A stretch of 64,000 nt of DNA from Phyllobates terribilis (lineage: Eukaryota), in contig NW_027362761.1 of the NCBI RefSeq assembly GCF_046119375.1, positions 1,155,742,001 to 1,155,806,000 of the forward strand, given 5' to 3'. A model generated the notes under the pieces. That model was not told where the DNA came from. It did not search any database and worked only from the letters and a program-made list of their open reading frames with translations. Within the stretch, counting starts at the first letter, position 1. Each line of letters opens with the position of its first letter. The translations under genes and the position numbers were made by a program. Of this stretch, positions 2,065 through 59,542 are shown piece by piece.

Positions 2065-3680
2065 GCTGCTCCGTCTTGCGTGGCGGCGGTTGCGGGCGCA
2101 CCATCGGGGCTGTCAGCCTGGTCAGCGACGTCGGGCTGTTGCTGCAACATCTTGGCGCCCCCCTAGTGAACCGTGGCCTACCTTCCTTCTGTAGGCCGCA
2201 GCTCCGCAGGCGGACCTTGCGTCGCTTACGTTCCACATCAGAGCGTTCGCTTGGGCTTCCTGCCAGGACCTGACGCTGCGTCAGTGCGTGGGGCGTGTCC
2301 TCGACTTCGCGCGCTTTCAGCGGTTATGCCCTCTAGTTTTCCCACGGTTACGCCCTTCTTCTCGCATGGCGACCGGAAAGATGGCGGCCAATGGCGGGAA
2401 ACTCCAGAAAATGGCGGGAAAAGCTTCACCACTGTGAGTTTTTTACAGTTTCTTAAGGCGCACAGTACCCGGTGGCAACGGGCACAACTCCTTCTGTTGT
2501 CGCGAGCACGCAATCCTGTTCGTGACGCCAGTGAGAGAGATGTGGCACCCAGGGGATGGGGACTACTCGGCGCCCGGGCCTTAATGCCTGGCCTTGGGGG
2601 ATGTCGCAGTGGTCGGCTCCGGGGCCCGTACCCTGGGGTCTCTCTTAAAAAAAAGGGGTTAAATGGAAAATGAAAGTTCGTGACGCCACCTGTGGTGTCT
2701 GGTGAGGACCACCAGCGCTGCGGCAGTCCACTGAGGCCGGTGTTACGGCAGCTATGATGGGGTAGCTCCCCACAGGTGGAGCTAGGCCTCAGGGCAGCGG
2801 TGTTCGGTAAGGTGCACTATATGGCGGTGACCCAGCCAGGTCCAAGGAAAAAATGGGAGACACACTCACGTTTGGCTTCAGTACCTTTTTACTGGTGGAG
2901 TTGCGGTACCGCCCGGAGCACTGTAGGATGAGGGGTGCACTGCAGGTCTCTCCCCAGTGAGCAGGTATAGGGCCTCCTGTATCCTTGCCGCTTGTGTAGT
3001 TTATGGCCTGTCTGAAACTAGGTCTAACTTAGTCCTTGTGTTGCGCCGGCTGACCTGGTGTTAGGGCCTTTTGCTGAAGAGCACGCTCCTGGTATGGCGG
3101 AGCCTCCGTGCCTCCTGGTCCTGTTACGTGTCAGCTCCTGGGCTATCCTGAGACCTGAAGTCTTCCAGGAAAGATTCGGTTGTTTTCCACAGAGGGTATA
3201 CTGCTCTGCAGACTCGGAGCCGGTGTCCGGTATATTTCTGGAGTGAGCTTATGAAGCTTCTCGGTCCCCGATGCTACTGTTCCACTAGCCTTCGGCCTAC
3301 TCTGGGCCCTCACTAGGCTATTCACACTGGCAGTAAGCTGGCTGCCTCTTCTGCCGCTCTTTAGAGCATCGGCAACGCTCCTAGCTGTCTCTCTCTGAGC
3401 TGCTTGCAGCAGACTCCAAACAACTCCTCTCAGCAGAAACCTGCTGAGTCACTAACCTTCTGTGTCTCAGCAGAGACTCCTGACTGGACTCACTCCTTAG
3501 ACAACTGACTGAACTTCCTCTCTTCCTGCCTCCACCCTCCTTTATATATTCACTAAAGGGCTCCCTCTGGTGGTTCTGAGGTAGGGTGGAGGTGTGTGTA
3601 TGCTCTGAGGGCCTCTTGTGGAGAAAACCTGAAATGCACCCCCCTTTGGTCTCTGACTCCATGCAGAGCAGGGCGTCACA
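2065..3680 (-). mobile_element. Gypsy element 5' end: LTR 2541-3680, PBS, leader and first 28 codons of a probable gag (ATG 2150), interrupted by the sushi-like element
   Basis: TGTGACGCCC...GGGTGCCACA LTR, PBS 10 nt downstream, GCCAAGATG start; inserted into the left arm of hAT copy 1 (3681 matches 22739 onward in copy 2). Confidence 0.85.
2512..2530 (-). promoter_or_regulatory. PBS complementary to tRNA-Ser(CGA) 3' end
   Basis: Plus strand AATCCTGTTCGTGACGCCA matches the 3' end (with CCA) of vertebrate tRNA-Ser(CGA) as recalled; not database-checked. Confidence 0.8.
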
Positions 3681-5638: not shown

Positions 5639-5755
5639 AACCCAGACGATAGTTTTGGCCTAATACCACAGTTTGGCCACTCAGCTCTGCTCGGTTCCCA
5701 TCCATTGTTTTTTTGTGCAAACAACTCCAGAGTTGTGAATTAGTTAACCACCAAA

Positions 5756-8700
5756 ATGAGTGGAAAAAGGCCTGCTGCTGGTGGAAAGGGGAATAGGCGT
5801 GTTGGGAAGGGGAAAAAAGGTTGTGTCCGTGGGGTAGGTGTTAAAGCAACACTAACATCTGCAGAAGAAAGACCATCTTCCAGCCAAACTAAAATGTCTA
5901 CTTCTTTTAGCGGACAATGTGATAAGATCCCTTTCTTACGGCCACGCCAATCGCTACAAATTCCAGATGAGGCACAAAAACAGCAGGTGCTTCAACGGAT
6001 ATCAATCTCCAGCTGCCCGTCTGAGTATGAGGTAGAACAGATGGTTGAGTCTGCAGAGCTGTTTACTCATACTATAGCCTGGGAATCAGAGGTCGGCTCC
6101 AGCGCTTCTGTGAATCCAGACGAGGAAATGATCTGCACTGATGCCCAGAATCTTTATGAGTCGGATCCAGGACCAGACGCAGAAGGTTCTGAACATAATG
6201 TAGACCCTCATTCCCAAACTGTAACTCCTGTTGGTGGAGACAATGAGGAAGACGATGATGAGACTCAAATACCTGATTGGAGTGACAACTTTAGTTTTTT
6301 CTCAGGGCAGGAACAGGTTGGCTCTGAGGACGACGGGTGTGATAACACACAGGGTGATGAATATGAGGTTGGAGATTCCACTTACTGTCAACCCACAGTC
6401 AGCCAAGAGATGAGGTCAGCAGAGGAGGTGGAGGAGGATGCTAGTGACGACGAGGTCAGGTTGCGCCTTCCTGGACAGAGACATAGTACTGGAAGCACGT
6501 CAACAACTGCATCCTCAAACACAACTCTGCCTCTCACCACAAGTCGTGGTGGCTCTTCAGGTCGCATGGGTGCTAAGCCTTGCATAGCCTGGGCATTTTT
6601 TCAGATCGATAAAGATGACCCAACTCGTGCTACCTGTAACATTTGTCAACAAAAGCTAAGTAGAGGCCAAAAAATACATAGTTTGAGTACTTCATGCATG
6701 AACCGGCACATGGACATGAAGCATAAGTTGCAGTGGGAAGCTCACTGTGCTACAATGCGGCCTAGCCGGCCGGGCCAACCGCCATCTGCCCCATCTTGTG
6801 CATCTACGGCCTCTTCATCCTCTGTGACTCTGGGGACAGCAGTCACACCTGTTTTGGGACGCAAACCTGCCACCTCTTTACCCGCAACAGCCAGCCTGAT
6901 TGGCAGGTCATCATTTTCTTTGGAGGTGGTAACACCAGCTGGTGTTGAGCGCTGTCCGACATCGATAGCACCACCTTTGGATCAAGGCAACCTAACATGT
7001 CCGCCTGCATCTTCCTCACAGACCGGCAGTTTGCCGGAGACACCCTTATCAACCCCGTCTAAGCACAACAGCCAGCCCTCAGTCCCTCAGATGTGGACAA
7101 GTAAAAGACCATTTCCTCCTAGCCATGAGAAAGCTAAGAGGTTGAATTTCACCATCTGCAAGCTCTTGGCTACAGAAATGCTGCCTTTCCGCCTGGTGGA
7201 CACAGAGGATTTTCGAGACCTTATGTCCGTCGCAGTGCCCCAGTACCAGATGCCCAGTCGGCACTACTTCTCAAAGAAAGGTGTGCCTGCGCTCCACCAG
7301 CATGTCGCACACAACATCACCGCTTCTTTGAGAAACTCTGTGTGTGACAGGGTGCATTTCACCACAGACACTTGGACGAGTAGGCATGGACAGGGGCGTT
7401 ACATGTCACTGACTGGGCACTGGGTAACTATGGTGACAGCAGGACAAGGGGCTGCTGTCCAAGTCTTGCCGTCCCCACGAGTTGTGCGTCAATCCTCTTT
7501 ATGTCAAAGTTCCTCCACTGCTTCTGCCTCCTCAACCTCCTCTCGGTCCTCCACCTGCACCCAAAGCCTGTCTGGTCATGCCACAAGCTTTCCAACTGCG
7601 CAGAAGGGATCCTGCACACCTCCTTACTATGCTGGCAGTAGGGCTCAACGTCATCAGGTGGTTTTTACTTTGAAATGTCTGGGAAATGTGAGTCACACAG
7701 CTGAGGAGTTGTGGTCAACTCTGGAGAACCAATTTCATGAATGGTTGTCTCCACTGGACCTGAAACCAGGGAAGGCCGTGTGCGACAATGCTGCAAAACT
7801 GGGTGCGGCCCTTCGCCGGGGCAATGTCACACACGTGCCTTGTATGGCTCACGTGTTGAACCTGGTTGTCCAGCAATTTTTAGCCCACTATCCCGGACTA
7901 GATGGCCTTCTGCAGAGGGCACGGTCGCTGTGTGCTCACTTCCGCCGTTCGCATCCCGCAGCTCAGCGACTTACATCTCTACAGAAGTCGTTGGGCCTGC
8001 CACTTCACAGGCTAAAATGCGATGTGCCTACCCGGTGGAATTCAACTCTGCACATGTTGCAGCGACTGTGGCAGCACCGACAAGCCCTGGTGCAATACGT
8101 TCTGACGTATAGCCTGGGCCAACGAGATCCAGAGGTGGGGCAAAACACGCTGGAGGAGTGGTCTCAGATCAGGGACCTATGCACCCTTCTGCACAGTTTT
8201 GAAATGGCGACGAAGATGTTTAGTGCTGACGATGCCATTATCAGCATGACTATTCCGGTGATTTACATGCTGGAGCACATGTTAAACAGAATTCGGAGTC
8301 AGGTGGTGGCACAAGAGGAGGTGGAGGAAGTAGAGGAGGAGGAGTTGTATGCGGAAGGGCTAACATCTGCAAGGTCCAGACGGTCGGCAGCACCAAGGCG
8401 GCAGGCATGTGAGGGTGGGGGAGATGGTTTTACCAGGGCGCATGGTAGCAGCCAAACTAGTGAGGAAGGTGCAGGAGCCCAGGAAGAAGTGGAGGACGAA
8501 CTGATGGAAGACTCATCAGATGAGGGAGACCTTGATCACATTTCTGTTGTGCGAGGTTGGGGGGAGAGGACAGAGGAAGGAAGCATGATTGTTACCTCGC
8601 CACCAACACAACAGGGACTTGGTGCTCCTGGATGCGCAAGACACATGAGTGCCTTCTTGCTGCACTACCTGCAACATGACCCTCGAATTGTGAGAATTAG

Positions 8701-9352
8701 AAATAATCCTGACTACTGGGCTGCCACACTGTTAGATCCCCGGTACAAAATTAAATTTGCAGAAATTATTCCTGCCATAGAAAGGGATGCACGCATGCAG
8801 GAGTATCAGCAGAGACTGTTGCAGAATCTTACATGTGCTTTTCCACAAAACACCAGTGGTGCACGTAGTGAATCTCACAGTTCCAACTTGCCAACCGTGG
8901 GACCGTCGAGTGTTCAGCACTCAAACCGTAACAGAAACACAGTATCTGCTGGTAACATCAATTTTGCGGAATCATTTCACCACTTTTTTAGCCCATCCTT
9001 TGCAAGGCCACAGGAGACAAGAAGTCTGACACATAGTCAACGCCTAGAGACAATGGTACAGGAGTATCTCCAAGTAAACATTGAAGCCATGACTGTGTCA
9101 CTGGACCCTTGCTCTTTTTGGGCTTCCAATCTGGATAAATGGCCGGAGCTCGCCACTTACGCCTTGGAGATCTTGTCATGCCCCGCAGCCAGCGTTCTGT
9201 CTGAACGTGTGTTCAGCGCTGCTGGTGGTGTGCTGACAGATAAGAGCACGCGGCTTTCCACTGATAATGTAGACAGACTCACGTTCATAAAGATGAACAA
9301 ATCATGGATCCGAAACGACTTTTCTACCCCTGTGTCATCCTGGGGAGACTAA
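5756..9352 (+). CDS. hAT (Ac/ZBED-like) transposase, 1198 aa, open frame
   Basis: BED finger (AWAFF...CNIC...RHMDMKH), catalytic motifs FTTDTWTS, CDNA, CMAH, TRWNST, SERVFS, and C-terminal dimerization domain WPELATYALEILSCPAAS. Confidence 0.95.
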   Translation: MSGKRPAAGGKGNRRVGKGKKGCVRGVGVKATLTSAEERPSSSQTKMSTSFSGQCDKIPFLRPRQSLQIPDEAQKQQVLQRISISSCPSEYEVEQMVESAELFTHTIAWESEVGSSASVNPDEEMICTDAQNLYESDPGPDAEGSEHNVDPHSQTVTPVGGDNEEDDDETQIPDWSDNFSFFSGQEQVGSEDDGCDNTQGDEYEVGDSTYCQPTVSQEMRSAEEVEEDASDDEVRLRLPGQRHSTGSTSTTASSNTTLPLTTSRGGSSGRMGAKPCIAWAFFQIDKDDPTRATCNICQQKLSRGQKIHSLSTSCMNRHMDMKHKLQWEAHCATMRPSRPGQPPSAPSCASTASSSSVTLGTAVTPVLGRKPATSLPATASLIGRSSFSLEVVTPAGVERCPTSIAPPLDQGNLTCPPASSSQTGSLPETPLSTPSKHNSQPSVPQMWTSKRPFPPSHEKAKRLNFTICKLLATEMLPFRLVDTEDFRDLMSVAVPQYQMPSRHYFSKKGVPALHQHVAHNITASLRNSVCDRVHFTTDTWTSRHGQGRYMSLTGHWVTMVTAGQGAAVQVLPSPRVVRQSSLCQSSSTASASSTSSRSSTCTQSLSGHATSFPTAQKGSCTPPYYAGSRAQRHQVVFTLKCLGNVSHTAEELWSTLENQFHEWLSPLDLKPGKAVCDNAAKLGAALRRGNVTHVPCMAHVLNLVVQQFLAHYPGLDGLLQRARSLCAHFRRSHPAAQRLTSLQKSLGLPLHRLKCDVPTRWNSTLHMLQRLWQHRQALVQYVLTYSLGQRDPEVGQNTLEEWSQIRDLCTLLHSFEMATKMFSADDAIISMTIPVIYMLEHMLNRIRSQVVAQEEVEEVEEEELYAEGLTSARSRRSAAPRRQACEGGGDGFTRAHGSSQTSEEGAGAQEEVEDELMEDSSDEGDLDHISVVRGWGERTEEGSMIVTSPPTQQGLGAPGCARHMSAFLLHYLQHDPRIVRIRNNPDYWAATLLDPRYKIKFAEIIPAIERDARMQEYQQRLLQNLTCAFPQNTSGARSESHSSNLPTVGPSSVQHSNRNRNTVSAGNINFAESFHHFFSPSFARPQETRSLTHSQRLETMVQEYLQVNIEAMTVSLDPCSFWASNLDKWPELATYALEILSCPAASVLSERVFSAAGGVLTDKSTRLSTDNVDRLTFIKMNKSWIRNDFSTPVSSWGD

Positions 9353-11345: not shown

Positions 11346-13145
11346 TGTATGGAGTTGTTCAATAAAGGGCCCAAAATTAAGATAACATAGACGGGAGAGG
11401 TCTCAATGAATAGGAATTCCTAAGAATTTGATACCCTGTGAGGGCCAGGCAAAGGGAAAGTTGGACTGGATGGAATCCTGTATGGATTTGGGGAGGGAGA
11501 CATCGAGGGCCTCAGACTTCGCTGCATTGATTTTAAAATTTGACCATGTAACAAAGTGATCTATTTCAGCCATAACAGCAGGGATGGATATATGTGATTG
11601 AGTGATATATACTAGGACATCATCAGCAAATAGAGAGCACTTGTACTCGGTGCCTCCCACCTCAATCCACCTAATATTGGGGTTATGGCGAATTGATGAG
11701 AGCAGGTGCTCCGTGACTAGGATGTATAAGAGAGGGGACAGAGGACATCCCTGCCTTGTCCCATTGGTGATTATGAAAGGTGATGAAAATGTTCTGACGC
11801 GCCCCCTGGGCATTGGGACATCCGGAGCCGGACCCTTTTTGGTGGATGCTGGTGGTTGTAGTCTCCGTGGCGGCGACCCGGTTCCGTGGCTCAGGGTGGT
11901 CACACCAGTGGCGGAACTATTTATGTGGTTTTGATGTTTAAATGTCCGACTACGCCACCCGTGGATTGCGGTCAGAGTGAACCGCCGCTGCAGGGCAGAC
12001 CGCTGGGGCTGGTGTTGTGGGTGCAGCAGAGCGTAGCCTCAGGGCAGTGTATGCGGAGGATGGGGGTGATGGTGCAGGGCAGCAGCAGTAACGACACGGA
12101 GTCAGTGATGCAGTCCAAGGCCTTTACTCACAGTTCTTATTATCCAGACCACTTCTGCAGGTAACGGCTGCCCACGTCTTACTGTGCTCACCAGGTGAGG
12201 GGCTCAGACAACTCCCAGATAACTTTGGAGCGCTTCACAGGAACCCCTTTGTGTGTCCTTTGTCTGGCCTTTCTTACCAACCCTTCTGTCCGGCTGCCTC
12301 GGGCCTCCTCTTGGTAAACTTGGCGCCAGTTTCCCTGACCCTATGTGCTGCCCTCCTAGCGGGTGTAGCGAGGGGCTGCGCCACATAAAATGTCACAGCC
12401 TCCGGTTCCTAGCTGAGGGTCGTTTCCCGCCTCCACTAGTTTCGGGGACCGGTCTCCCCCTTTGGCCTGAGCCCTCCACGCAGGTGGATTCGGGCGTGCG
12501 GTGGCGACTCGCCCGTCCACACCCCTGGGATCCCTTCGTTCCTCGTTCCTGGAGCCTTCTCCGCTCCTCTTCCTTCCTTCTCCCTCTTCCAGGCCTGGGC
12601 CTCTGTTACTAGGCCCGCCTCCGGAGCAGAGCTCATGCAGAGTCCCTGCTCCCTGTCACTTCTGCTCAGACTTCTCTGCACTGAACTAAGATGGTGCCCA
12701 CCTTTTATACTCCCTTCTCAATGCACCCAGGAACTGATTCCTCCCTGCTCCTGCACTACAGGGTTCCCCTTCCTCAGTGTTCCCTCCCCCCACTCCAGCC
12801 AGGGAAAAGGACTGTCGTGCCCATCTCAGGGGCATATTGGTCGCCCTGCCCCACGGCAATGTGGTGTAATGCATGCAGGTGTCGGGTCCTGATCCACACT
12901 CCATCCTTACCTGAGAGTGAGATATCACACCTCTGGGTGAGGTGCAATACCTCTGTAGCAACCGAGCCCTCGGGGTGCTACAGTTCCATTCATCTTCAGC
13001 CTAGGTGACGTATTGCGATACAGGGCCGTGATTTTGGCTATAAAAGGGTGCCCTAGACCCCTACCCCAAGCTTTTTAAGAGAATAATATATGGCGTGCCA
13101 GGAGACTCTATGGAATGCTTTCTCAGCATCCAACGAGAGTATCTA
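11346..13145 (-). pseudogene. L1-clade LINE reverse transcriptase fragment interrupted by a solo LTR
   Basis: LSLDAEKAFHRVSW (~13095-13140), GHPFIAKITALY...MNGT|FSSPF, GTRQGCPLSPLLY, LFADD; the frame is continuous across the LTR. Confidence 0.9.
11795..12982 (-). mobile_element. Solo LTR, same subfamily as 769-2024
   Basis: TGTAGCACCCCG...GGCGCGTCA on minus strand; TSD GTTC (11791-11794 / 12983-12986). Confidence 0.92.
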
Positions 13146-18405: not shown

Positions 18406-19733
18406 TTACAGGAACATGGTCTGATCATACCACATTTCCTGGGCAGGGGAGGAAGTGTGGCGCCCCTGCGGGTCCAGTCGCCACAGAGGTACTGCATCTC
18501 ACCCAGAGGTGTGGTACCCCACTCTCAGGTAAGGAGGGAGCACTACCCGAGACCCACACACCTGCATCCAACACTACACCAGTCCAGACCTGCAGGCGGG
18601 GCAAGATGCATTTGTCCACTGCTGAGCCCTGCCCCTGGCTGGAAGGGGGGGGACCAAGAGACGGGGAACAATGTAGTGGGTGTGGGTGGACAAAGCAGAT
18701 CAGTGGAGCACAGACAGGAAGGGTATAAAAGTCAGAGAGAAACATCTAGAAGGGTTCAGTCCTGCTCAGGAGAGCAGTGCAAAAGGGTCCATTCTCCTGG
18801 CTCCAGTGCTTGGAGCAGGAGTTCAGTTGAGAGAGAGGAGTCGGGCCCAGAGAGAGGCCCAGGAGAAGGAAAGAGAGGAGCAGTGAGGAGGGCTCCAGGA
18901 GAGACAGAGGGGATCCCAGGGGCACAGCGAGCGCAGAGGCCACCTGTGCGCCCGAATCAACACTGACGTGGAGGGATCAGGCCGCGGAGAGGGGACCGGC
19001 CCCTAAACTAGTTGAGAACAACCAGGCTCAGCTAGACAACCGGAGGCTGCTGCATTTTCAAGGTGTTGCAGCCAAAACCCACAATTATATAGCCGAAAAG
19101 GTTGCCGCATAGGGTCCAGGGGACTGAGAGCACGTCGCCCGACAAGGCCCGAGGCCACTGGCTTGGGACACTGATTGTGAGGCGCAGGGCAGGAGGGTGA
19201 GAGCCAGCGCAGTGAGACGACCGGGAAAGGCACATAGAACGGGGTCCCTTTTAAGTGCTCCTGAGGTACCTGAGAGATTGCTGGTTCCCTACCCCGGTGG
19301 ACATAGGACGACGAGGGCGGTCATTACCGGCTGCATCGGTGACCTGCCTTAAACTGTGAGTAAAGCCTGAAGACTGCACCCCACTGAATCCTTGACTCAT
19401 TACTGCGCCACCAGCCCTGCACTACACTGCACAGCAACATCTACCTCATCAAATCATCAACTACACTGCCCTGGAGCTAAGCTCTGCCTGTGGAGAGCTG
19501 AACCAACTCTGCTGCGTCACCACCAGCTCCAGAGGATCTGCACCGCAGCGGCAGCCCCATATAGCCGCATACCACAGGTGGCGTCACGAACATTATCTCT
19601 AAAAACTTTATTCCCCTTTTACTTTCCCTTTAATTGACCGCCCTGGGTCACGGACCGGGTCACTGTCACCGTGATATACCCCAGCACCGACCCGGCTACC
19701 GAGTACCCCACGGCCCAGGGGGTACGTCAAACT

Positions 19734-19751
19734 TGGCGTCAGGAACAGGAT
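19734..19751 (+). promoter_or_regulatory. PBS, tRNA-Ser(CGA) type (1 mismatch)
   Basis: TGGCGTCAGGAACAGGAT 4 nt after the LTR end. Confidence 0.8.
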
Positions 19752-20249
19752 GAACCGACCCGTTACACCGGGTCCTGTGTGCCACAAAGACTGTGTATAA
19801 CTGGATAAACTGCAGCCATTACTGTAGCACATGCGGAGTTAATGATATGTGTCCCATCGTGGGCGGAGCCTCAGAAACGGTGCCAAAATAGGCCTCTCCC
19901 ACTTGTATAGACTGTACCAGAGTTATCTGTCACTCAGGCTGAAAGGTGCCAGCCTTCTCCTTTGCATCAGACTGAAGGGGGAGATTGTCGCCTCCCCCTG
20001 CAGAGGGCTGTGTGATCCCATCTATCCATCTGCTGCAGCCCTGTGCTGTGTGATCCATCCACCCATCCGACAATCCCAGCTGCTGCAGCTCTGTGAATAC
20101 AACACAAGTGTGAGAAGCTGTGCAGCAAGAGTGCAGCTGTACAGTGAACAGCAGAGCAGTCTCGGTGACCGACTGTGCAAGGAGCGACGACATAAGCATC
20201 CGGAGTGGTGAGTCCTACCCCGGCAAGGGTGAACTAGGGGGGGAGAAAG

Positions 20250-20543
20250 ATGCCCAACTTAGGCGAAGCTCCAGCAGAGGGCTCCCCCGCAGCTCCCATA
20301 ATGCCACTGTCTATGCCATACATCCCAGGAGCGGCCTGGTTACCACAATACTCAGGAGAGAGGGGGTGGTACGTGCGTTATGTGCAAAAGGCGAGCTCTG
20401 AGGACATGCCCCTGACTTCTGGTGTTGCTGACCCTGGCCGTCCACAAGGAGCTTCTGCTCCGGCTGCAGATAAGTACCCCGGAGAGAGTAACCTACACCC
20501 GCCACCGTGGAGAACGTGGGTGGAACGCACTACATGTGCATAG
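20250..20543 (+). pseudogene. Deletion-junction ORF: gag-like N-terminus fused to C-terminal strand of a cold-shock domain ORF
   Basis: MPYIPGAAWLPQYSGE (PNMA-type gag-like, from recall) runs into GERGWYVRYVQKASSEDMP, 9/19 identical to GEHGWYALDVHRVFKEDAP of the 58105-59457 protein. Confidence 0.6.
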
Positions 20544-23090
20544 GGTGGTGGAGGAGGAGAGCGTACCCCTACCATCTATGACTGATGAACCGGCTGCGCC
20601 ATCTAGTGGTGGACAAATGTTCCCCTGGAGGGGACACCACTACTGAACTGTTCACTTAAAAGTTAAAAACTGTATATAGTTACCCAGAAGGGTATTGATA
20701 ATCCTTTAAAGAGTTAAAAAAAAGTTTTTGTTTGTTTAGTGTACCCGGTTAAGGTACAAAGACTTATAGGTTGTGGACATTGAACAGCCAAAAAACTTTA
20801 TTTGTATATAGTTAGCACTTCTTAAGGTGCTTCCTGTTGGTTTTCTAAAGACCACTGAACAAAAACCCGTTGGCCAAAGACGTGGTCCAACAAGTGGATC
20901 ACCTATGCCCTGCAGCCACGCCCAGGGTCTACGCTGGGAGTTTTCGAACGGGTCCCTCATGTTGCACCTTTACCAGTGAGATGGATACCCGGTTAAGGAT
21001 CTCACTGTAGCCTGTTGAAAAGTGTTTTATGTGAAAAAATAAAGAAAAATGTTATTAAAAGTGGTTTTATAATGTTTTATATAATGATAGAAACATGTAA
21101 CATTCAAGGAAAGTGCATCCCATAAAGGGAAGAAAAAGTTGTATATTGTTCTTCTATGTGATGCATCTAAAAATTTTGTATGTCTTTAAAATACCTTGTT
21201 TTTACTCTGTTCCAGCCCGCGGACGTGCTGTGTTTAACGGGGGGGGGGAGGGGGGTATGTGGTGCCCCTGCGGGTCCAGTCACCACTGAGGTACTGCATC
21301 TCACCCAGAGGTGTGGTACCCCACTCTCAGGTAAGGAGGGAGAACTACCCGGGACCCACACACCTGCATCCAACACTACACTACTCCAGACCAGCAGAAG
21401 GGTCAAGATGCATTTGTCCACTGCTGAGCCCTGCCCCTGGCTGGAAGGGGGGGAACCAAGAGAGGGGGAACCATTTAGTGGGTGTGGGTGGAGGAAGCAG
21501 TTCAGTGGAGCACAGACAGGAAGGCTATAAAAGACAGAGAGAAACATCTAGAAGGGTCCAGTCCTGCTCAGGAGAGCAGTGCAGAAGGGTCCACGCTCCT
21601 GGCTCCAGTGCTTGGAGCAGGAGTTCAGTTGAGAGAAAGGAGTTGTCCCCAGAGAGAGGCCCAGGAGAAGGAAAGAGAGCAGCAGTAAGGAGGGCTCCAG
21701 GAGAGACAGAGGGGATCCCAGGGGCACGGCGAGTGCAGAGGCCATCCGTGCGCCCGAATCAATGCTGACGTGGAGGGATCAGGCTGCAGAGAGGGGACCG
21801 GCCCCTAAATTAGTGGAGAACAACCAGGCTCAGCTAGACAACCGGAGGCTGCTGCATTTTCAAGATGTTGCAGCCAAAATCCACAATTATATCGCCGAAA
21901 AGGTGGCCGCATAGTGTCCAGGGGACTGAGAGCACGTGGCCCGACAAGGCCCGAGGCCACTGGCTTCGGACATTAATTGTGAGGCGCAGGGCAAGAGGGC
22001 GAGAGCCAGCGCAGTGAGATGACCGGAAAAGGCACATAGAACGGGGTCCCTTTTAAGTGCTCCTGAGGTACCTCAGAGATTACTGGATCCCTACTCCGGT
22101 GGACACAGGACGACGGCCATTACCGGCTGCAGCGGTGACCTGGAACTGCCTTGAACTGTGAGTAAAGATGAAGACTAGAGATGAGCGTTGTTCTACTCGA
22201 ACTGTTCGCCAATCTCAAATTCGAGCTGTTTTGGGCGGTGTTTGAGCCGGTCGGCGAACACGAACAATTTGAGAAAAATTCGGCTGTTCGAGGTTATGTT
22301 CGATAACTGTTCGTGCACCAAAATCATAACTGGATTTTTTCTCAGTAATGATGAAAATTAATGTTAATACGCAGTTTGAGTGTACAGCGGGGCGGGGGGA
22401 GGGGCAGGGGATGGATCTCTGCAGGAACAATGAAGATCTCCATTTTTTTTTCTCTTTCCCGCATTTGCAGTGGGGAGGTGCAATCTGTCAGCCTATCAGC
22501 AGCGCACACACGGAGCAAAGTGCTTTTTTTCACACAAGCAAGGGCATGTGTGATTGGCAGTGTATGTCACATGTCCTTGCCCTATAAGACCAAGCCATTT
22601 TCCCCGTCGCCACCATTTTCTCACTGCTGCAGCTGCGTGTTAGACGGCACCGCTGTTGCTGTGTGCGCTATACCTTGTTAATTTCAAGCCAATTTTCGCA
22701 CAAATATACAGATAGCTTGGGAGTAGGGAATAGTTGTGATTGCAGTCCTTTTAAGGACTAGGTTACAGCATTTCCTACGACTTTTATCAAGCAGGTCTGT
22801 GCTCTTAAATAGATAGATTGTGGGAGTAAAGACTAATTGTAATTGGAGTCCTTTTCAGGACTAGGTTACATCAGTTCCTATCAGTTTTTGCCAGGCAGGT
22901 CTGTGCCAGTGCTGTGCAAGTTTTTTTCACAGCATTTGGCTGAATCTAGCAAAGCTAATCCTTTTTAGCCTATTGCAGAGTGTGTTAGTCAGTGGAGTAG
23001 CCTATCTGTGTTGCAAGATATACCACCTGTGTATAGAATACCAATTTTTTTACTGCACCTAGTGAAGTAAAATCTTTTGGGCATAGCATC

Positions 23091-24588
23091 ATTCTATTAG
23101 TCCATCTATACTGACCTCCATCAGGTTGCAAACTGAATATAATTTTTTTCTGCATCTAGCTCTGAAAAAATATTTGGGCTTCTAGCAGTGTGTGGGACTT
23201 GTTCTATTAGTCCTTCTATACTGACCTCCAGCAGGTTGCAAATTGAATATAATTTTTTTCTGCATCTAACTCTGAAAAAATATTTGGGCTTCTAGCGGTG
23301 TGTGGGACTTGGTCTATTAGTCCATCTATACTGACCTCCATCAGGTTGCAAATTAAAAATAATTTTTTTCTGCATCTAGCTCTGAAAAAATATTTGGGCT
23401 TCTAGCAGTGTGTGGGACTTGGTCTATTAGTCCATCTATACTGACCTCCATCAGGTTGCAAATTAAAAATAATTTTTTTCTTCATTTATCTCTGAAAAAA
23501 TATTTGGGCTTCTAGCAGCGTGTGGGACTTGTTCTATTAGTCCATCTATACTGACCTCCATCAGGTTGCAAATTAAAAATAATTTTTTTCTGCATCTAGC
23601 TCTGAAAAAATATTTGGGCTTCTAGCAGTGTGTGGGACTTGGTCTATTAGTCCATCTATACTGACCTCCATCAGGTTGCTAATTGAATAAAAAAATTTTC
23701 TGCATCTAGCTCTGAAAAAATATTTGGGCTTCTAGCGGTGTGTGGGACTTGGTCTATTAGTCCATCTATACTGACCTCCATCAGGTTGCAAATTGAATAA
23801 AAAAAATTTCTGCATCTAGCTCTGAAAAAATATTTGGGCTTCTAGCGGTGTGTGGGACTTGGTCTATTAGTCCATCTATACTGACCTCCATCAGGTTGCA
23901 AATTAAAAATAATTTTTTTCTTCATTTATCTCTGAAAAAATATTTGGGCTTCTAGCAGCGTGTGGGACTTGTTCTATTAGTCCATCTATACTGACCTCCA
24001 TCAGGTTGCAAATTAAAAATAATTTTTTTCTGCATCTAGCTCTGAAAAAATATTTGGACTTCTAGCAGTGTGTGGGACTTGGTCTATTAGTCCATCTATA
24101 CTGACCTCCATCAGGTTGCAAATTGAATAAAAAAAATTTCTGCATCTAGCTCTGAAAAAATATTTGGGCTTCTAGCGGTGTGTGGGACTTGGTCTATTAG
24201 TCCATCTATACTGACCTCCATCAGGTTGCAAATTAAAAATAATTTTTTTCTGCATCTAGCTCTGAAAAAATATTTGGGCTTCTAGCAGTGTGTGGGACTT
24301 GGTCTATTAGTCCATCTATACTGACCTCCATCAGGTTGCAAATTAAAAATAATTTTTTTCTGCATCTAGCTCTGAAAAAATATTTGGGCTTCTAGCTGTG
24401 TGTGGGACTTGGTCTATTAGTCCATCTATACTGACCTCCATCAGGTTGCAAATTGAATAAAAAAATTTTCTGCATCTAGCTCTGAAAAAATATTTGGGCT
24501 TCTAGCGGTGTGTGGGACTTGGTCTATTAGTCCATCTATACTGACCTCCATCAGGTTGCAAATTAAAAATAATTTTTTTCTGCATCTA
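23091..24588 (+). repeat. 110-bp tandem array (~13.6 units)
   Basis: Period 110 from 23091 to 24521. Confidence 0.97.
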
Positions 24589-24704
24589 ACCCAGCCAATA
24601 GTTTTGGCCTAATACCACAGTTTGGCCACTCAGCTCTGCTCGGTTACCATCCATTGTTTTTTTGTGCAAACAACTCCAGAGTTGTGAATTAGTTAACCAC
24701 CAAA

Positions 24705-27700
24705 ATGAGTGGAAAAAGGCCTGCTGCTGGTGGAAAGGGGAATAGGCGTGTTGGGAAGGGGAAAAAAGGTTGTGTCCGTGGGGTAGGTGCAGAAGAAAGA
24801 CCATCTTCCAGCCAAACTAAAATGTCTACTTCTTTTAGCGGACAATGTGATAAGATCCCTTTCTTACGGCCACGCCAATCGCTACAAATTCCAGATGAGG
24901 CACAAAAACAGCAGGTGCTTCAACGGATATCAAGTGCTCCTTTAAGTGGGCTCTCCTCCACATCAACTTCAACATCACAAATACTCCAGTCCTCAAAGGT
25001 GTCACCCAAATCGCACTTGCTTCCTCACAGCTCCCAAATCTCCAGCTGCCCGTCTGAGTATGAGGTAGAACAGATGGTTGAGTCTGCAGAGCTGTTTACT
25101 CATACTATAGCCTGGGAATCAGAGGTCGACTCCAGCGCTTCTGTGAATCCAGACGAGGAAATGATCTGCACTGATGCCCAGAATCTTTATGAGTCGGATC
25201 CAGGACCAGACGCAGAAGGTTCTGACCATAATGTAGACCCTCATTCCCAAACTGTAACTCCTGTTGGTGGAGACAATGAGGAAGACGATGATAAGACTCA
25301 AATACCTGATTGGAGCGACAACTTTAGTTTTTGTCAGGGCAGGAACAGGTTGGCTCTGAGGACGACGGGTGTGATAACGCACAGGGTGATGATGATGAGG
25401 TCGGAGATCCCACTTACTGTCAACCCACAGTCAGCCAAGAGATGAGGTCAGCAGAGGAGGTGGAGGAAGATGCTAGTGACGACGAGGTCAGGTTGCGCCT
25501 TCCTGGACAGAGACGTAGTACTGGAAGCACGTCAACAACTGCATCCTCAAACACAACTCTGCCTCTCACCACAAGTCGTGGTGGCTCTTCAGGTCGCATG
25601 GGTGCTAAGCCTTGCATAGCCTGGGCATTTTTTCAGATCGATAAAGATGACCCAACTCGTGTTATCTGTAACATTTGTCAGCAAAAGCTAAGTAGAGGCC
25701 AAAAAATACATAGTTTGAGTACTTCATGCATGAACCGGCACATGGACATGAAGCATAAGTTGCAGTGGGAAGCTCAGTGTGCTACAATGCGGCCTAGCCG
25801 GCCGGGCCAACCACCGTCTGCCATATCTTGTGCATCCGCGGCCTCTTCATCCTCTGTGACTGGGGGGACAGCAGTCACACCTGTTTTGGGGCGCAGACCT
25901 GCCACCTCTTTACCCGCAACAGCCAGCGTGATTGGCAGGTCATCATTTTCTTTGGAGGTGGTAACACCAGCTGGTCTTGAGCGCTGTCCGACATCGATAG
26001 CACCACCTTTGGATCAAGGCAACCTAACATGTCCGCCTGCATCTTCCTCACAGACCGGCAGTTTGCCGGGGACACCCTTATCAACCCCGTCTAAGCACAA
26101 TAGCCAGCCCTCGGTCCCTCAGATGTGGACAAGTAAAAGACCATTTCCTCCTAGCCATGAGAAAGCTAAGAGGTTGAATTTCACCATCTGCAAGCTCTTG
26201 GCTACAGAAATGCTGCCTTTCCGCCTGGTGGACACAGAGGATTTTCGAGACCTTATGTCCGTCGCAGTGCCCCAGTACCAGATGCCCAGTCGGCACTACT
26301 TCTCAAAGAAAGGTGTGCCTGTGCTCCACCAGCATGTCGCACACAACATCACCGCTTCTTTGAGAAACTCTGTGTGTGACAGGGTGCATTTCACCACAGA
26401 CACTTGGACGAGTAGGCATGGACAGGGGCGTTACATGTCGCTGACTGGGCACTGGGTAACTATGGTGACAGCAGGACAAGGGGCTGCTGTCCAAGTCTTG
26501 CCGTCCCCACGAGTTGTGCGTCAATCCTCTTTATGTCAAAGTTCCTCCACTGCTTCTGCCTCCTCAACCTCCTCTCGGTCTTCCACCTGCACCCAAAGCC
26601 TGTCTGGTCATGCCACAAGCTTTCTAACTGCGCAGAAGGGATCCTGCACACCTCCTTACTATGCTGGGAGTAGGGCTCAACGTCATCAGGCGGTTTTTAC
26701 ATTGAAATGTCTGGGAAATGTGAGTCACACAGCTGAGGAGTTGTGGTCAGCTCTGGAGAACCAATTTCATGAATGGTTGTCTCCACTGGACCTGAAACCA
26801 GGGAAGGCCGTGTGCGACAATGCTGCAAACCTGGGTGCGGCCCTTCGCCGGGGCAATGTCACACACGTGCCTTGTATGGCTCACGTGTTGAACCTGGTTG
26901 TCCAGCAATTTTTAGCCCACTATCCTAGACTAGATGGCCTTCTGCAGAGGGCACGGTCGCTGTGTGCTCACTTCCGCCGTTCGCATCCCGCAGCTCAGCG
27001 ACTTACATCTCTACAGAAGTCGTTGGGCCTGCCACTTCACCGGCTAAAATGCGATGTGCCTACCCGGTGGAATTCAACTCTGCACATGTTGCAGCGACTG
27101 TGGCAGCACCGACAAGCCCTGGTGCAATACGTTCTGACGTATAGCCTGGGCCAACGAGATTCAGAGGTGGGGCAAATCACGCTGGAGGAGTGGTCTCAGA
27201 TCAGGGACCTATGCACCCTTCTGCACAGTTTTGAAATGGCGACGAAGATGTTTAGTGCTGACGATGCCATTATCAGCATGACTATTCCGGTGATTTACAT
27301 GCTGGAGCACATGTTAAACAGAATTCGGAGTCAGGTGGTGGCACAAGAGGAGGTGGAGGAAGTAGAGGAGGAGGAGTTGTATGCGGAAGGGCTAACATCT
27401 GCAAGGTCCAGACGGTCGGCAGCACCAAGGCGGCAGGCATGTGAGGGTGGGGGAGATGATTTTACCAGGGCGCATGGTAGCAGCCAAACTAGTGAGGAAG
27501 GTGCAGGAGCCCAGGAAGAAGTGGAGGACGAACTGATGGAAGACTCATCAGATGAGGGAGACCTTGATCACATTTCTGTTGTGCGAGGTTGGGGGGAGAG
27601 GACAGAGGAAGGAAGCATGATTGTTACCTCGCCACCAACACAACAGGGACTTGGTGCTCCTGGATGCGCAACACACATGAGTGCCTTCTTGCTGCACTAC

Positions 27701-28383
27701 CTGCAACATGACCCTCGAATTGTGAGAATTAGAAATAATCCTGACTACTGGGTTGCCACACTGTTAGGTCCCCGGTACAAAAGTAAATTTGCAGAAATTA
27801 TTCCTGCCATAGAAAGGGATGCACGCATGCAGGAGTATCAGCAGAGACTGTTGCAGAATCTTACATGTGCTTTTCCACAAAATACCAGTGGTGCACGTAG
27901 TGAATCTCACAGTTCCAACTTGCCAACCGTGGGACCGTCAAGTGTTCAGCACTCAAACCGTAACAGAACCACAGTATCTGCTGGTAACATCAATTTTGCG
28001 GAATCATTTCACCACTTTTTTTAGCCCATCCTTTGCAAGGCCACAGGAGACAAGAAGTCTGACACATAGTCAACGCCTAGAGACGATGGTACAGGAGTAT
28101 CTCCAAGTAAACATTGAAGCCACGACTGTGTCACTGGACCCTTGCTCTTTTTGGGCTTCCAATCTGGATAAATGGCCGGAGCTAGCCACTTACGCCTTGG
28201 AGATCTTGTCATGCCCCGCAGCCAGCGTTCTGTCTGAACGTGTGTTCAGCGCTGCTGGTGGTGTGCTGACATAAGCGCACCCGGCTCTCCACTGATAATG
28301 TAGACAGACTCACGTTCATAAAGATGAACAAATCATGGATCCGAAACGACTTTTCTACCCCTGTGTCATCCTGGGGAGAGTAA
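24705..28383 (+). pseudogene. hAT transposase, frameshifted (three ORF pieces)
   Basis: Near-identical to 5756-9352; -1 in a T-run at ~25330, +1 in a T-run at ~28020, 2-bp deletion giving TAA at 28272-28274. Confidence 0.92.
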
Positions 28384-28711
28384 AAGCTTGATGATTGGTT
28401 AAAATCACCCTACCAACCGTTTTAAGCTTTCAAATTACTAATCATGTTTATCTGTATCTTGACTGGAAAATAATTTGGGCTTTGTAGCAGTGTGCAGCAC
28501 TGATCCTATTAGGCCATCTATAATAAGCTTCACCAGATTTAAAATTAAAAATAATTTTTAGCTGCATCTAGCCCGGAAAATAATTTTGGGGGTCCGAGAT
28601 GCGCAAGACACATAAGTGCCTTCTTGCTGCACTACCTGCAGCATGACCCTCATATTGTCAGAATTCGAAGTAATCATGACTACTGGGTTGCCACACTCTT
28701 AGATCCCCCAA

Positions 28712-30082
28712 ACTTTTCGATCAACCTTTTCATTTTAATAAAGACCAAAAAAATGGTCATTTTTGAAATTATAAGCATTAGCAGGTTGTTAGAAACTGAA
28801 ATCAAACAGTTTTCAACTCAAAACTTTATTGTAGGTGATGTTACATTTTCACATAGGACCCCTTGTTCGAAAGGAGCTTCTGAACTCTCTCGTCCATTGA
28901 ATTTGTCAGGTTTTGGATGGTTTCTGCTTCAATTGTTTTGCATGAGGACAGAATACCCTCCCAGAGCTGTTGCTTAGATGTGAACTGCCTCCCGCCATCA
29001 TAGACACTCCTTTTAATGATGCTCCAAAGGTTCTGAATGGGGTAGAGGTCAGGGGAGCATGGGGGTCACACCATAAGTTTGTCCCCTTTTATGCCCATAT
29101 CAGCCAGAGATGCAGATGTTTTATGTGCAGCATGAGATGGTGCATTATCATGCAGAAAAATGATCTTGCTGTGAAATACACGGTTCTTCTTCTTGAACCA
29201 TGGCAGGAAGTGCTGTTTGAGAAAATCCACATACATTATGGAGTTCATCTTTAGCGCCTTCAGGGATCCTAAAGGGGCCGACAATCTCTCTCCCCATGAT
29301 TCCAGCCCAAAACATTACTCCACCTCCTCCTTGTTGGCGCTGTAGCCGTGTTTGCGTGGGGTGTCCATCAACCAGCCATCCTCCACTCCATTCATCTGGA
29401 CCATCGAGCGCTGCACGGCACTCATCCATGAACAAAACAGTTTTGAAATCAGTCTTCATGTATTGTTTGGCCCACTGGAGCCCTTTCTGCTTGTGTGCAG
29501 TGGATAGAGAAGGTCGACAGGATGGCGTATGCACAGCTGCAAACCTCTGAAGGACCCTGCATCTTGTAGTTCGGGGGACGTTGGAGGCACAAGCAGCTTC
29601 AAAAACTTGTCTGCTGCTATGACAAGGCTTTTTTGCCGTTGCTCTTTCAACCTGACGTAATTGCCTGTAGGAAAGAGTCCTCAATTTGCCCTTATCAGCA
29701 CGCACACGTGTGTACTGTGAATCAGCTACATACTTCTTGATTGCCAAGACACTTCATCCTGATCATCGCACAATGTTGATTGTAGTCATGCCTTGACCTA
29801 AACACTCCACAATTTGTTGCTTCTCAGCAGCCGACACATCCTTTTTCTTTCCCATTTTGGCAGAAAATGTAGGCTGCTTAATAATGTGAGAGAGCCTTCT
29901 TAAGTAGTCTTGCCTTTCATTGGACACACCTGCCAAACTAATTAGCACAGGTGTCTGCAATTGCTTACAGTGATATAAAGAGCCCTGACACACATCACCA
30001 TCAATGAGTTTAACTGACAAACAAACAAATTCTTCCCTTATCACTCCTAAACACTTTTTGCATAATAATTTGGAACGCGGTG
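28712..30082 (-). mobile_element. Tc1 remnant (copy of 9900-11272)
   Basis: Collinear with copy 1; ORF 29148-29747 is Tc1 transposase. Confidence 0.9.
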
Positions 30083-30154
30083 TACATGTGCTTTTCCACA
30101 AAACACCAGTGGTTCACGTAGTGAATCTTACAGTTCTAACTTGCCAACCGTGGT

Positions 30155-31975
30155 CTGTATGGAATTGTTCAATAAAGGGCCCAAAATTAAGATAACATAG
30201 ATGGGAGAGGTCTCTATGAATAGGAATTCCTAAGTATTTGATACCCTGTGAGGGCCAGGCAAAGGGAAAGTTGGACTGGATGGAATCCTATATGGATTTA
30301 GGGAGGGAGACATCGAGGGCCTCAGACTTCGCTGCATTGATTTTAAAATTTTACCATGTAACAAAGTGATCTATTTCAGCCATAACAGCAGGGATGGATA
30401 TATGTGATTGAGTGATATATACTAGGACATCATCAGCAAATAGAGAGCACTTGTACTCGGTGCCTCCCACCTCAATCCACCTAATATTGGGGTTATGGCG
30501 AATTGATGAGAGCAGGTGCTCCGTCACTAGGATGTATAAGAGAGGGGACAGAGGACATCCCTGCCTTGTCCCATTGGTGATTGTGAAAATGTTCTGACGC
30601 ACCCCCTGGGCCTTGGGACACCCGGAGCCGGACCCTTTTTGGTGGATGCTGGTGGTTGTAGTCTTCGTGGCGGCAATCCGGTTCCGTGGCTCAGGGCGGT
30701 CAAACCAGTGGCGGAACTATTTATGTGGTTTTGATGTTTAAATGTCCGACTACGCCACCCGTGGATTGCGGTCAGAGTGAACCGCCGCTACAGGGCAGAC
30801 CGCTAAGGCTGGTGTTGTGGGTGCAGCAGAGCGTAGCATAACTCCCCACGGGAGGAGTATAGCCTCAGGGCAGTGTATGCGGAGGATGGGGGTGATGGTG
30901 CAGGGCAGCAGCAGTAACGACTCGGAGTCAGTGATGCAGTTCAGGGCCTTTACTCACAGTTCTTATTATCCAGACCACGTCTGCAGGTAACGGCTGCCCA
31001 CGTCGTACTGTGCTCACCAGGTGAGGGGCTCAGACAACTCCCAGATAACTTTGGAGCGCTTCACAGGACCCCCTTTGTGTGTCCTTTGTCTGGCCTTTCT
31101 TACCAACACTTCTGTCCGGCTGCCTCGGGCCTCCTCTTGGTAAACTTGGCGCCAGTTTCCCTGACCCTATGTGGTGCCTTCCTAGCGGGTGGAGCAAGGG
31201 GCTGCGCCACATAAAATGTCAGAGCCTCCGGTTTCTAGCTGAGGGTCGTTTCCTGCCTCCACTAGTTCGGGGACCGGTCTCCCCCTTTGGCCTGACCCCT
31301 CCACGCAGGTGGATTCGGGTGTGCGGTGGCGACTCGCCCGTCCGCACCCCTGGGATCCCTTCATTCCTCGTTCCTGGAGCCTTCTCCGCTCCTCTTCCTT
31401 CCTTCTCCCTCTTGCAGGCCTGGGCCTCTGTTACTAGGCCCGCCTCCGGAGCAGAGCTCATGCAGAGCCCCTGCTCCCTGCCACTTCTGCTCAGACTTCT
31501 CTGCACTGAACTAAGATGGTGCCCACCTTTTATACTCCCTTCTCAATGCACCCAGGAACTGCTTCCTCCCTGCTCCTGCACTACAGGGTTCCCCTTCCTC
31601 AGTGTTCCCTCCCCCCACTCCAGCCAGGGACAGGGACTGTCGTGCCCATCTCAGGGGCATATTGGTCGCCCTGCCCCACGGCAATGTGGTGTAATGCATG
31701 CAGGTGTCGGGTCCTGATCCACACTCCATCCTTACCTGAGAGTGAGATATCACACCTCTGGGTGAGGTGCAATACGTCTGTAGCAACCGAGCCCTCAGGG
31801 TGCTACAGTTCCATTTATCTTCAGCCTAGGTGACGTATTGCGATACAGGGCCGTGATTTTGGCTATAAAAGGGTCCCCTAGACCCCTACCCCAAGCTCTT
31901 TAAGAGAATCATATATGGCGTGCCAGGAGACTCTATGGAATGCTTTCTCAGCATCCAACGAGAGTATCTAATTAC
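30155..31975 (-). pseudogene. L1 RT fragment with solo LTR 30595-31807 (TSD GTTC), copy of 11346-13145
   Basis: Same junctions as in copy 1. Confidence 0.9.
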
Positions 31976-32164
31976 AAATTTTTAACTGCATCTAGCCCAG
32001 GAAATACTTTGTGCCTAGTAGCAGTGTCTGCTAGTCAGCGGATTATCCCGGCTGTTAAGCAAGCTACACCACCTGTAGTTTAGACACTTAATTTTTTCAA
32101 AGGAAATGCTTCGGGACCATGGGATACTTAGTGAAGAGCATCAGGAGGCACCCCAAGGCATAGG

Positions 32165-32348
32165 GGCTGGGACTGGCAGTAGGATGCCTTGCGGTGGACA
32201 GCCGAGCTCGATCCTTATAAAAGCTTTTTAACTGCAGCAGCTTTAGTGGACGCTACTGGAGCTGGAATTACGCGGCTGCTGGCATGAGACTTGCCCTCCA
32301 ATAGATCCTTGTAAATGGATTTAAAGTGTATTCATTCAAATTAGAGAG
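32165..32348 (-). pseudogene. 18S rRNA fragment (copy of 13340-13523)
   Basis: Same 18S segment. Confidence 0.9.
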
Positions 32349-33976
32349 ACAATTTAAATTAAAAAGCTTAGAGCTGCCTCCACCACAGGGGGGCTCGCTC
32401 GACCCACCAGCGGACAGGCACCAGTATTGGGAGAGGGGGGCTGGCCGTCAGGGTTCACCGCGGCTCTGGCACAAACCCGGCGACACGGAGGTGGCACGGG
32501 CAGGAGCGGACTGGCCGTGTCGGCTTCTCACTTTTTGGATTTTAGAAGGGCATGACATGCCTATATCTGTGTCTCCCCCTCCTTTTACTCCTCCACCTCT
32601 TTTATTTTCGCATGACTATATGTACTTGTCACTTTTCCATGTGTTAGTTATGTCTTCTGAGCAGTTTGTCAGCTTTTGGACACCTTTGAAGGTGTTTTCT
32701 ATGTGTTTCTATGTGTTTTTGTTTGCCTGCCATTGGTTTTAGCGGTGTTCGAAGGTGTTCGACGAACAGTTCGACGAACAGTTCGGCGAACACACGGGTG
32801 TTCGACGAACCGAACCGAACTCGAACACTACGGGGGTGGCTCAACACTAATGAAGACTGCACCCCACTGTGTCCTTGACTCATTACTGCGCCACCAGCCC
32901 TGCACTACACTGCACAGCAACATCTACCTCATCAAATCATCAACTACACTGCCCTGGAGCTAAGCTCTGCCTGTGGAGAGCTGAACCAACTCTGCTGCAT
33001 CACCATCAGCTCCAGAGGATCTGCACCGCAGCGGCGGCCCCATATAGCCGCATACCACAGGTGGCGTCACGAACATTATTTCTAAAAACTTTATTCCCAT
33101 TTTACTTTCCCTTTAATTGACCAGCCTGGGTCATGGACCGGGTCACCGCCACCGTGGCATCTCCCAGCATCGACCGGCCCGGCTACCGAGTACCCCACGG
33201 CCCAGGGGGCGCGTCATAGAAGCAAAAGAGGTAAAGCATTTCCCTGCCTGTTTTTAAACAATGTTTTACTTCAAAGAAAGAATTATTTGTGATTCCATGA
33301 TGTAATGTCTGTATTCTCTTTTGCTTCCTCCCCTGCCCAGGAGATGTGGTATGATCAGACCATGTTCCTGTACAGTCAGACACGGCCATTACACAGTACA
33401 CAGTCGGGGCACATTTATAAGATTATCTCAGCACAGGAACATTTAAACACATCCTATTGTGGAAATTATTATAAGATCTATTGATTAAAATGAACTTTTG
33501 TTTGTGGGAAAACCCCTTTAAGTTGCACATACCCTTAAGGTGTTTTTTTTTTTCTTACCATTGCACTACTTCTTCCCCTGGAGGGTAGACATCAAATGAA
33601 TGGAGTCATTTGATGAACAGCAGAGCATTAATGTGTTTCTTAGGAAGAGGAGCATACATAGAAATCACGGGGCCCATAACAAGTGACCGTATTAGGTCCT
33701 TCCCCACCCAAAAAAATTCTGCAAATATGTGGGGTAGTACACACGATTCACACAAAGTATGTGGGGTCACGGCACATAGGCTCAGTCACAGAAGAACATA
33801 CCTTGCAATTTTTAAACACAGGGAGAGGGACATGTATTACAGCACATAGTGTTCTCACCAACTTGCAATATGCCTTTCACAACCCTTATACAGTATGATA
33901 TCCCCCAAAATGGCCCCCAAAATGATACCCCGCAGTGAATTCCCCCACATAACTTTGCCCCTACTGTACTGTACTG

Positions 33977-57533: not shown

Positions 57534-57542
57534 TTCCCCCCC
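57534..57542 (-). promoter_or_regulatory. Polypurine tract
   Basis: GGGGGGGAA on element strand abutting the 3' LTR. Confidence 0.85.
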
Positions 57543-57671
57543 GGTGAAACACAGCACGTCCGCGGGCTGCAACAGAGTAAAGAGTTGGTACAGACATTCA
57601 ATTTTTAAAAGTTTTTGTAAACATGAAAAATTCTTCCCTTTATGGGAGGTTAGGACACTTTTAACGTTGCA

Positions 57672-57709
<38 letters not shown>

Positions 57710-58104
57710 AATATAGAAAACATCAAAGAGACATTATGCATGTATGGAAGACATTATGCATATATGGAAGACATTCAGGAGACATTATGCAAGCAGACAG
57801 TTCTGTAGAAAATACGGTAGAAAGTGTCAGTTCCCTCAACGTAGGCCCTGGGGTGGCTGCAGGGCCTGAAGATCCCGAGTTGGACCTCCAGTAGAGCCAC
57901 TCCAGACCGGTTTTGCTTCTGAGGTCTGAGGTAGAAGTGGTTTTGCATAAAACCAATAGGGAGCACCTAAATAGATGCAAAACTATATACAAGAATGAGT
58001 CTGTCTTCTGCCAGTGTCCGCAGGGACAAATGTCTCTCTTAACAGAAATCCGGGAAAAACAAGGAACAGTTTAAATGAAGGGGAGATTCATCTCCCGGGG
58101 TTGC

Positions 58105-59457: not shown

Positions 59458-59542
59458 GTGTGAAATGACAGTCTTTTTGTGTAAAGGCGCACAGTACCCG
59501 TCGGCAATGGGGGTTATTCTTTTCCGTTGCTGCGGGCACGCG

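Follow-up and report, generated by a model that had tools for sequence, protein, structure and literature searches.

The short ORF at 20250-20543 of the 64-kb window (the whole stretch of Phyllobates terribilis DNA analyzed) begins like gag and ends like a cold-shock domain (CSD), which raises the question of what kind of retrotransposon produced it and where the CSD gene sat in the parent. According to the original prediction, one deletion at a GE-codon microhomology removed gag-pol and most of a CSD ORF from an LTR-gag-pol-CSD-LTR parent. The frame reads as it was quoted there, and it occupies an element, E1 (18456-33216), that is a non-autonomous Ty3/Gypsy LTR retrotransposon with a PNMA-type gag start.

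E1 is preceded on the plus strand by a 4-bp target-site copy, GAAG (18452-18455), and opens with a 5' LTR with TG...CA ends (18456-19729), which blastn aligned to the split 3' LTR at 91.5% identity for one half and 93.7% for the other. This LTR is followed by a primer-binding site (PBS; 19734-19751) with one mismatch to a PBS at 2513-2530. A PBS motif search of the window gave five matches against 0.06 expected, and motif comparison bore out the earlier statement that the E1 site differs from that of a second element, E2 (we take them to be tRNA-Ser types, Ser-CGA in E1 and Ser-AGA/TGA in E2). The 5' leader (19752-20249) aligns weakly, at the corresponding position, with the element at 2030-2530 (E 0.13) and contains GGTGAGT near 20208, ~40 nt 5' of the gag ATG, a candidate splice donor by motif alone. 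Beyond the coding remnants, and still on the plus strand, a 3' untranslated block with motifs common to E2 (20647-21238) closes with a 22-nt motif (21213-21234) identical in E2, and a polypurine tract (PPT; 21239-21255) precedes the 3' LTR. The latter is in two parts (21258-22175, identified by blastn, and 32850-33216, 93.7% identical to 19368-19729), split by a later insertion of 10,674 bp (22176-32849) with an 8-bp target duplication and TAG...CTA ends, presumably hAT-like. A second GAAG stands at 33219-33222, two bases past the 3' LTR end at 33216; paired TG...CA LTRs and a target duplication are present in both E1 and E2, the duplication being exact in E2. The internal region of E1 measures 1.5 kb, its ORF holds no intact domain, and no pol similarity was found within the 64-kb window. 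LTR divergence of 0.055-0.071 corresponds to ~11-14 My at a rate of 2.5e-9, as used in the available text of 10.1101/2023.11.06.565769.

The surrounding window is repeat-rich animal DNA. Inverted 49-bp arms (98%) at 18407-18455 and 33324-33372 flank E1, marking a small inverted-repeat DNA element as the insertion site of E1. A third member of the family at 2030-3680 (minus strand) has an LTR, the PBS at 2513-2530 and a leader related to that of E2 (E 2e-9), with a probable gag start at 2150, after which it is truncated beside a solo LTR at ~770-2024. Solo LTRs of related subfamilies were located at about 770-2024, 11795-12982 (minus strand) and 30740-31812 (minus strand), the first two with 4-bp target duplications (TGAC and GAAC, respectively). 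A PBS-like motif recurs in all LTR types of the window, ~140-170 nt upstream of the LTR 3' end. It was found by motif search in E1 (19579-19592 and 33062-33075) and by eye near 1855, 2683, 11950, 56390 and 59730; its likeness to the element's own PBS is seen in E1, in E2 and in the 2030-3680 element. An open ORF of 1202 codons (5744-9352), which we take to resemble a hAT transposase, lies behind a 110-bp tandem array, and a broken second copy (24693-28274) lies inside the insertion that splits the E1 3' LTR.

The first 37 codons of the ORF (20250-20360, plus strand) had been assigned to gag from recall, and protein searches identified them as the gag start of a PNMA-type Ty3/Gypsy element. Residues 1-55 of the ORF returned three proteins from nine candidates, all with a PNMA-type Gag domain, and residues MPLSMPYIPGAAWLPQYSGE were 20/20 identical to the PNMA-type Ty3/Gypsy Gag of Dendrobates. 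The E1 gag start was 20/20 identical to P0009 and 21/21 to P0008, on both of which the PNMA Pfam domain scored over its cut-off (E 5e-8 and 8e-7 for P0009 and P0008), and the gene model P0007 carries RT and RNase H beside the same gag. A PDB sequence search with P0009 gave Arc matches only, all non-significant. In all three homologues MPLSMPYIPGAAWLPQYSGE is identical and then followed by SHTL, not RGWY; a gag that itself continues as GERGWYV is excluded, as homologues and contigs alike read on differently.

The remainder of the ORF was compared with the protein encoded near 58 kb (P0001), using a CSD profile built from eight frog database proteins only. The ungapped match GERGWYVRYVQKASSEDMP / GEHGWYALDVHRVFKEDAP between P0001 and the segment following gag (tail A, 20355-20474, plus strand; last beta-strand and C-terminal linker) was reproduced at 9/19 identities. 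Against the profile, tail A reached 8.3 bits (E 0.32) over the whole window, a score equaled in 2/20 shuffled windows, and within the 1.5-kb internal region its BLOSUM score was 44, a value that 300 shuffles did not approach, the highest of them scoring 28. By these sequence comparisons, the match of tail A to CSD is real but weak. A second remnant, overlooked previously, follows in a different frame (tail B, 20488-20646, plus strand; strands 4-5, C-terminus and stop), with a far stronger profile score of 33.5 bits (E 4e-9), 16/25 identical residues in the core against P0001 (tblastn E 8e-7) and a similar C-terminal end (FPWRGHHY-stop in tail B, FSRWGYHF-stop in P0001). Past the tail B stop the DNA is homologous to the E2 3' block, up to the identical 22-nt motif before the PPT. 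The positional counterpart of the P0001 end is tail B rather than tail A. The two tails are clearly different (7/12 identical in the core), and of the fold E1 retains no more than strand 5 in tail A and strands 4-5 in tail B.

The DNA of tail A aligns both to tail B and to E2, and 13/26 differences fall at third positions. Relative to E2, synonymous change outweighs replacement change in both tails; pN and pS were 0.35 and 0.84 for tail A over 19 codons and 0.20 and 0.61 for tail B over 25 codons (both without significance test). A count across selected rows gave 12/28 third-position differences, no clear excess (28 of the 40 listed, 191 in all). The E1 copy has a frame break at ~20484-20487 that is absent from some other copies.

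To resolve how these segments were joined, contigs of four coded public runs were aligned to 20100-20800 at 80% likeness, giving 730, 816, 654 and 15 records; of the loose ends 24 (out of 330) and of the pieces 32 (out of 2217) form the basis of the results. X1, X2 and X5 are DNA runs, and X13 may be RNA. The gag-to-tail-A junction was bridged in 3/3 DNA runs by diverged contigs (X1 record 3, X2 record 20 and X5 record 27, with 12-30 other letters each), which places E1 in an amplified subfamily. Gag continuing past the junction, which the original prediction suggested looking for, was found in the loose ends past 20360 of X5 (four contigs) and X13 (one), which read on as in P0007. Conversely, two contigs match tail A and differ upstream: X5 record 28 from 20356, with 292 unlike letters before it that are probably CSD, and X2 record 21 from 20354, with 27 unlike letters before it. 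The gag-type and tail-A-type contigs overlap by 5-7 nt at 20354/6-20360, for which the probability under a random join is about 0.005 or less (equal base frequencies), and the contig ends thereby demonstrate the proposed in-frame join at the GGAGAG (GE codons) microhomology (20355-20360, plus strand). At 20377 and 20379 the window is the exception: nearly all aligned copies have other letters there, encoding the residues found in P0001, which strengthens the identity of tail A.

Tail B was entered from an intact CSD in six X2 contigs and in X13 record 14, and from linker A in others, pointing to a second join near 20475-20480, which would lie at YPG codons between linker A and a second CSD copy (20475-20487, plus strand). 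In X13 record 14 (1525 nt), the 1132 letters preceding tail B include neither the gag start nor tail A among the matches listed. Among the contigs listed, those entering the 3' block from upstream come from a CSD stop (X5 at 20665, X13 records 14 and 16); pol was not recognized in any contig piece or loose end listed. Scans of contig collections in which frog DNA is not expected gave no complete copy and carry no weight for gene order: the 22-nt 3' motif had 0 matches in viral, metagenome and prokaryote genome contigs, and there were 0 confirmed matches for P0006, P0007 and P0009 in viral contigs or for P0009 in metagenomes. Overall, we read the E1 ORF as a mosaic of three parts joined at two points, and the single deletion originally proposed is not borne out, given the second join into a different CSD copy.

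The intact form of the CSD gene is found in E2 (56224-60870, minus strand), a complete LTR-PBS-CSD ORF-PPT-LTR element with 98% identical LTRs and the target duplication TCTA. Its LTRs differ by a K2P distance of 0.016, corresponding to ~3 My (rate 2.5e-9), and contain an internal 55-bp duplication (60143-60350 and 56807-57014). The single ORF (P0001; 58105-59598, minus strand, probable start 59211) runs open for 497 codons. E2 showed no similarity to gag or pol, and the possibility that its ORF begins with a gag start was rejected for lack of any gag similarity. P0001 is predicted to consist of a long helix, a disordered Pro-rich stretch, another long helix and a complete CSD, and the model of the whole protein (pTM 0.31) implies no packing of these parts. 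The domain model shows a five-stranded beta-barrel behind a long helix, with a mean pLDDT of 80.7 and mostly over 90 in the barrel, and matches CspA (TM-score 0.90 by target length), CRHSP-24 and Y-box CSDs. An ESM Atlas search gave a best score of 0.76, too low to be informative. The best PDB sequence matches were YB-1/YBX2 (E 3e-10), narrowly first; bacterial CSPs score just 3-6 bits lower, a margin too small to point to a donor of the CSD. RNP-1- and RNP-2-like aromatic motifs are recognizable on strands 2-3 in E2, where GWGFI and xVFV columns align with GYGFI and DVFV of YB-1, and are deleted from E1. Against Pfam PF00313 the P0001 domain scored 21.2 bits, below the cut-off of 27, which three of the seven frog homologues scanned pass.

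The same CSD type occurs in 11 divergent frog gene models from three dendrobatoid genera (P0003, P0004, P0061, P0062 and seven from one further search), eight of which are 30-55% identical to the E2 domain; homologues of window proteins were named from Dendrobates, Phyllobates, Ranitomeya and Anomaloglossus, as expected of a dendrobatoid host. Together with its presence in two divergent LTR subfamilies, where the CSD stop directly precedes the same 3' cis block, this upholds the proposal that the CSD gene is family-wide, and the database gene models probably also sit in LTR elements. None of the 11 models resembles the gag-pol proteins P0007-P0009, and a search for long CSD-pol fusions (8000 candidates scored) gave nine matches, none with gag/pol domains. 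The fusions of P0003, P0004, P0061 and P0062 to unrelated domains look like gene-model artefacts and were set aside. No tandem-CSD protein was found among seven frog homologues, each with one CSD stretch. Beyond the frog matches, proteins with several CSDs come next in similarity to the E2 protein (P0013, from a dinoflagellate transcriptome, and P0016-P0058); these matches probably reflect generic CSD similarity.

We consider it likely that E1 is an amplified non-autonomous member of a PNMA-Gag Ty3/Gypsy family, whose ORF is a scar of gag and captured CSD left by two template switches. Reverse transcriptase would first have switched from gag to CSD tail A at the GGAGAG microhomology and then from linker A to the second CSD copy near 20475, and the product, still equipped with LTRs, PBS, leader, 3' block and PPT, would have relied on a gag-pol helper for its copying in trans. 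The intact gene encodes a protein rich in helices, with a Y-box-like CSD at its C-terminus; judging from the structural model and by analogy, this protein would most likely bind the element's own RNA in packaging, protection or translation control. A collinear junction of the E1 type arises either by deletion in one RNA or by a template switch between two, and hence leaves gene order unfixed; the two placements of the CSD gene, following pol in the helper or confined to CSD-only satellites, are closely balanced, with a slight lean to the satellites.

With close to an even chance, CSD belongs to long-standing LTR-CSD-LTR satellites whose LTR, PBS and 3' signals are also those of CSD-less gag-pol helpers, and E1 arose by switching between co-packaged RNAs, taking its 3' end from one or more satellites and its 5' end from a helper. 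E2 is what such a satellite would look like, being complete, young and open in frame with no trace of gag or pol, and the tails of two CSD copies in E1, each with its own relatives, indicate that the E1 lineage joins different templates. The 1132 letters upstream of tail B in X13 record 14, free of a listed gag-start or tail-A match, agree with this arrangement. Poison-frog assemblies may lean the same way, a point of little weight. Single-ORF LTR elements are also known in Xenopus (1a11 and xretpos, in the available text of PMC4585706). However, satellites of this kind need a reason for a constrained ORF in a non-autonomous element and leave the origin of E2-type elements unexplained, and the CSD-less helper was not seen either.

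Somewhat below an even chance stands an autonomous LTR-gag-pol-CSD-LTR parent in which CSD occupies the env/ORF3 position and may be expressed by splicing, and from which E1 derives by internal deletion and E2-type elements by gag-pol deletions or as copies of subgenomic RNA. Such a parent gives E2-type elements an easy origin and most readily explains long-term protein constraint, which is expected of an autonomous lineage. It also agrees with the CSD stops of E1 and E2 running straight into the same 3' cis block and PPT, with listed contigs entering that block from the CSD stop, with the donor-like GGTGAGT just 5' of the gag ATG, and with a join that is in frame and collinear (gag 5', CSD 3'). 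Yet no pol was seen beside any CSD in the window or the listed contigs, E2 is without a gag or pol remnant, and none of the 11 CSD models resembles gag-pol, though separate ORFs would be annotated apart. The second CSD remnant in E1 also costs this parent the parsimony of a single deletion.

Nesting is an unlikely origin, whether of a CSD element inside a gag-pol element or of two CSD elements, fused by deletion at the DNA level, and so is a one-ORF parent with tandem CSDs. The window is full of nested insertions, the split 3' LTR of E1 among them, and tandem CSDs would account for two tails; E1, however, has one matching LTR pair with its target duplication, the seven frog homologues include no tandem-CSD protein, and microhomology joins that keep the frame are characteristic of template switching. 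It is very improbable that the ORF is plain gag debris whose 9/19 match arose by chance, as the window-wide profile result (E 0.32, with 2/20 shuffles as high) might allow, since 0/300 local shuffles reach the score, tail A DNA aligns to tail B and E2, there is a third-position excess (13/26) and other copies are nearer to P0001 than the window copy, so that contigs and shuffles have largely refuted this reading.

The gag-CSD junction itself is an ordinary deletion/recombination scar. Anuran Ty3/Gypsy (Metaviridae) types include Gmr1, Mag and Amn-san according to the main text of PMC4131045, and E1 resembles anuran Ty3/Gypsy elements in its TG...CA LTRs, tRNA PBS, PPT, 4-bp duplication and PNMA-type gag start; unlike them, it carries CSD remnants, and that main text does not contain the word "cold". 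E2 resembles Xenopus 1a11 and xretpos as an amphibian LTR element with one ORF, but 1a11 encodes a Gag-like protein and the E2 ORF has no gag similarity; "cold shock" is likewise absent from the available text of PMC4585706. The same holds for "cold shock" or "cold" in the available text of the frog retroelement papers checked, these two included, and the literature searched, which did not extend to Repbase or subscription journals, yielded no description of a CSD carried by a Gypsy element or by an amphibian LTR element, amphibian Gypsy elements included. Like internal-deletion derivatives of what we take to be the TRIM/LARD type, E1 kept its cis signals, lost coding capacity and was probably amplified in trans; its scar differs in recording a gene that is neither gag nor pol, together with two joins.

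A closer parallel is provided by bird endogenous retroviruses, 46 of which carry CSDs through several captures and in varied positions (available text of PMC12287698). There, as in the frog elements, a host-type CSD was captured by an LTR retroelement, although the bird carriers described in that text are Retroviridae and the frog carrier is a Gypsy lineage; unlike in those ERVs, the frog CSD ends a dedicated helix-rich ORF and also occurs alone between LTRs (E2). With the Y-box proteins YB-1/YBX2 the E2 CSD shares the fold and the longer loop before strand 4, and it differs in being ~26% identical in the structural match and C-terminal, behind long helices. YB-1 supports HIV RNA metabolism, as stated in the available text of PMC6040738.

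As a tentative and more doubtful extension, a Gypsy lineage may have captured a Y-box-like gene as a third, env-position ORF expressed from spliced RNA, where it would serve as an RNA chaperone or a mimic of germline mRNA masking, and then repeatedly shed recombining satellites, CSD-only ones such as E2 and gag-CSD scars such as E1; this may add to the Gypsy load of poison frogs, which in Oophaga pumilio is 1.0 Gb with high germline expression according to the available text of PMC6278860. Under either gene order the elements would represent something new, namely a predicted RNA-binding gene in the env position or a non-autonomous class with a CSD protein as its sole gene. CSD capture, for which the reports to date concern bird retroviruses, would thereby extend to Gypsy as a convergent case, and a constrained Y-box-like accessory gene across LTR subfamilies would give a testable lead to the success of Gypsy elements in poison frogs.
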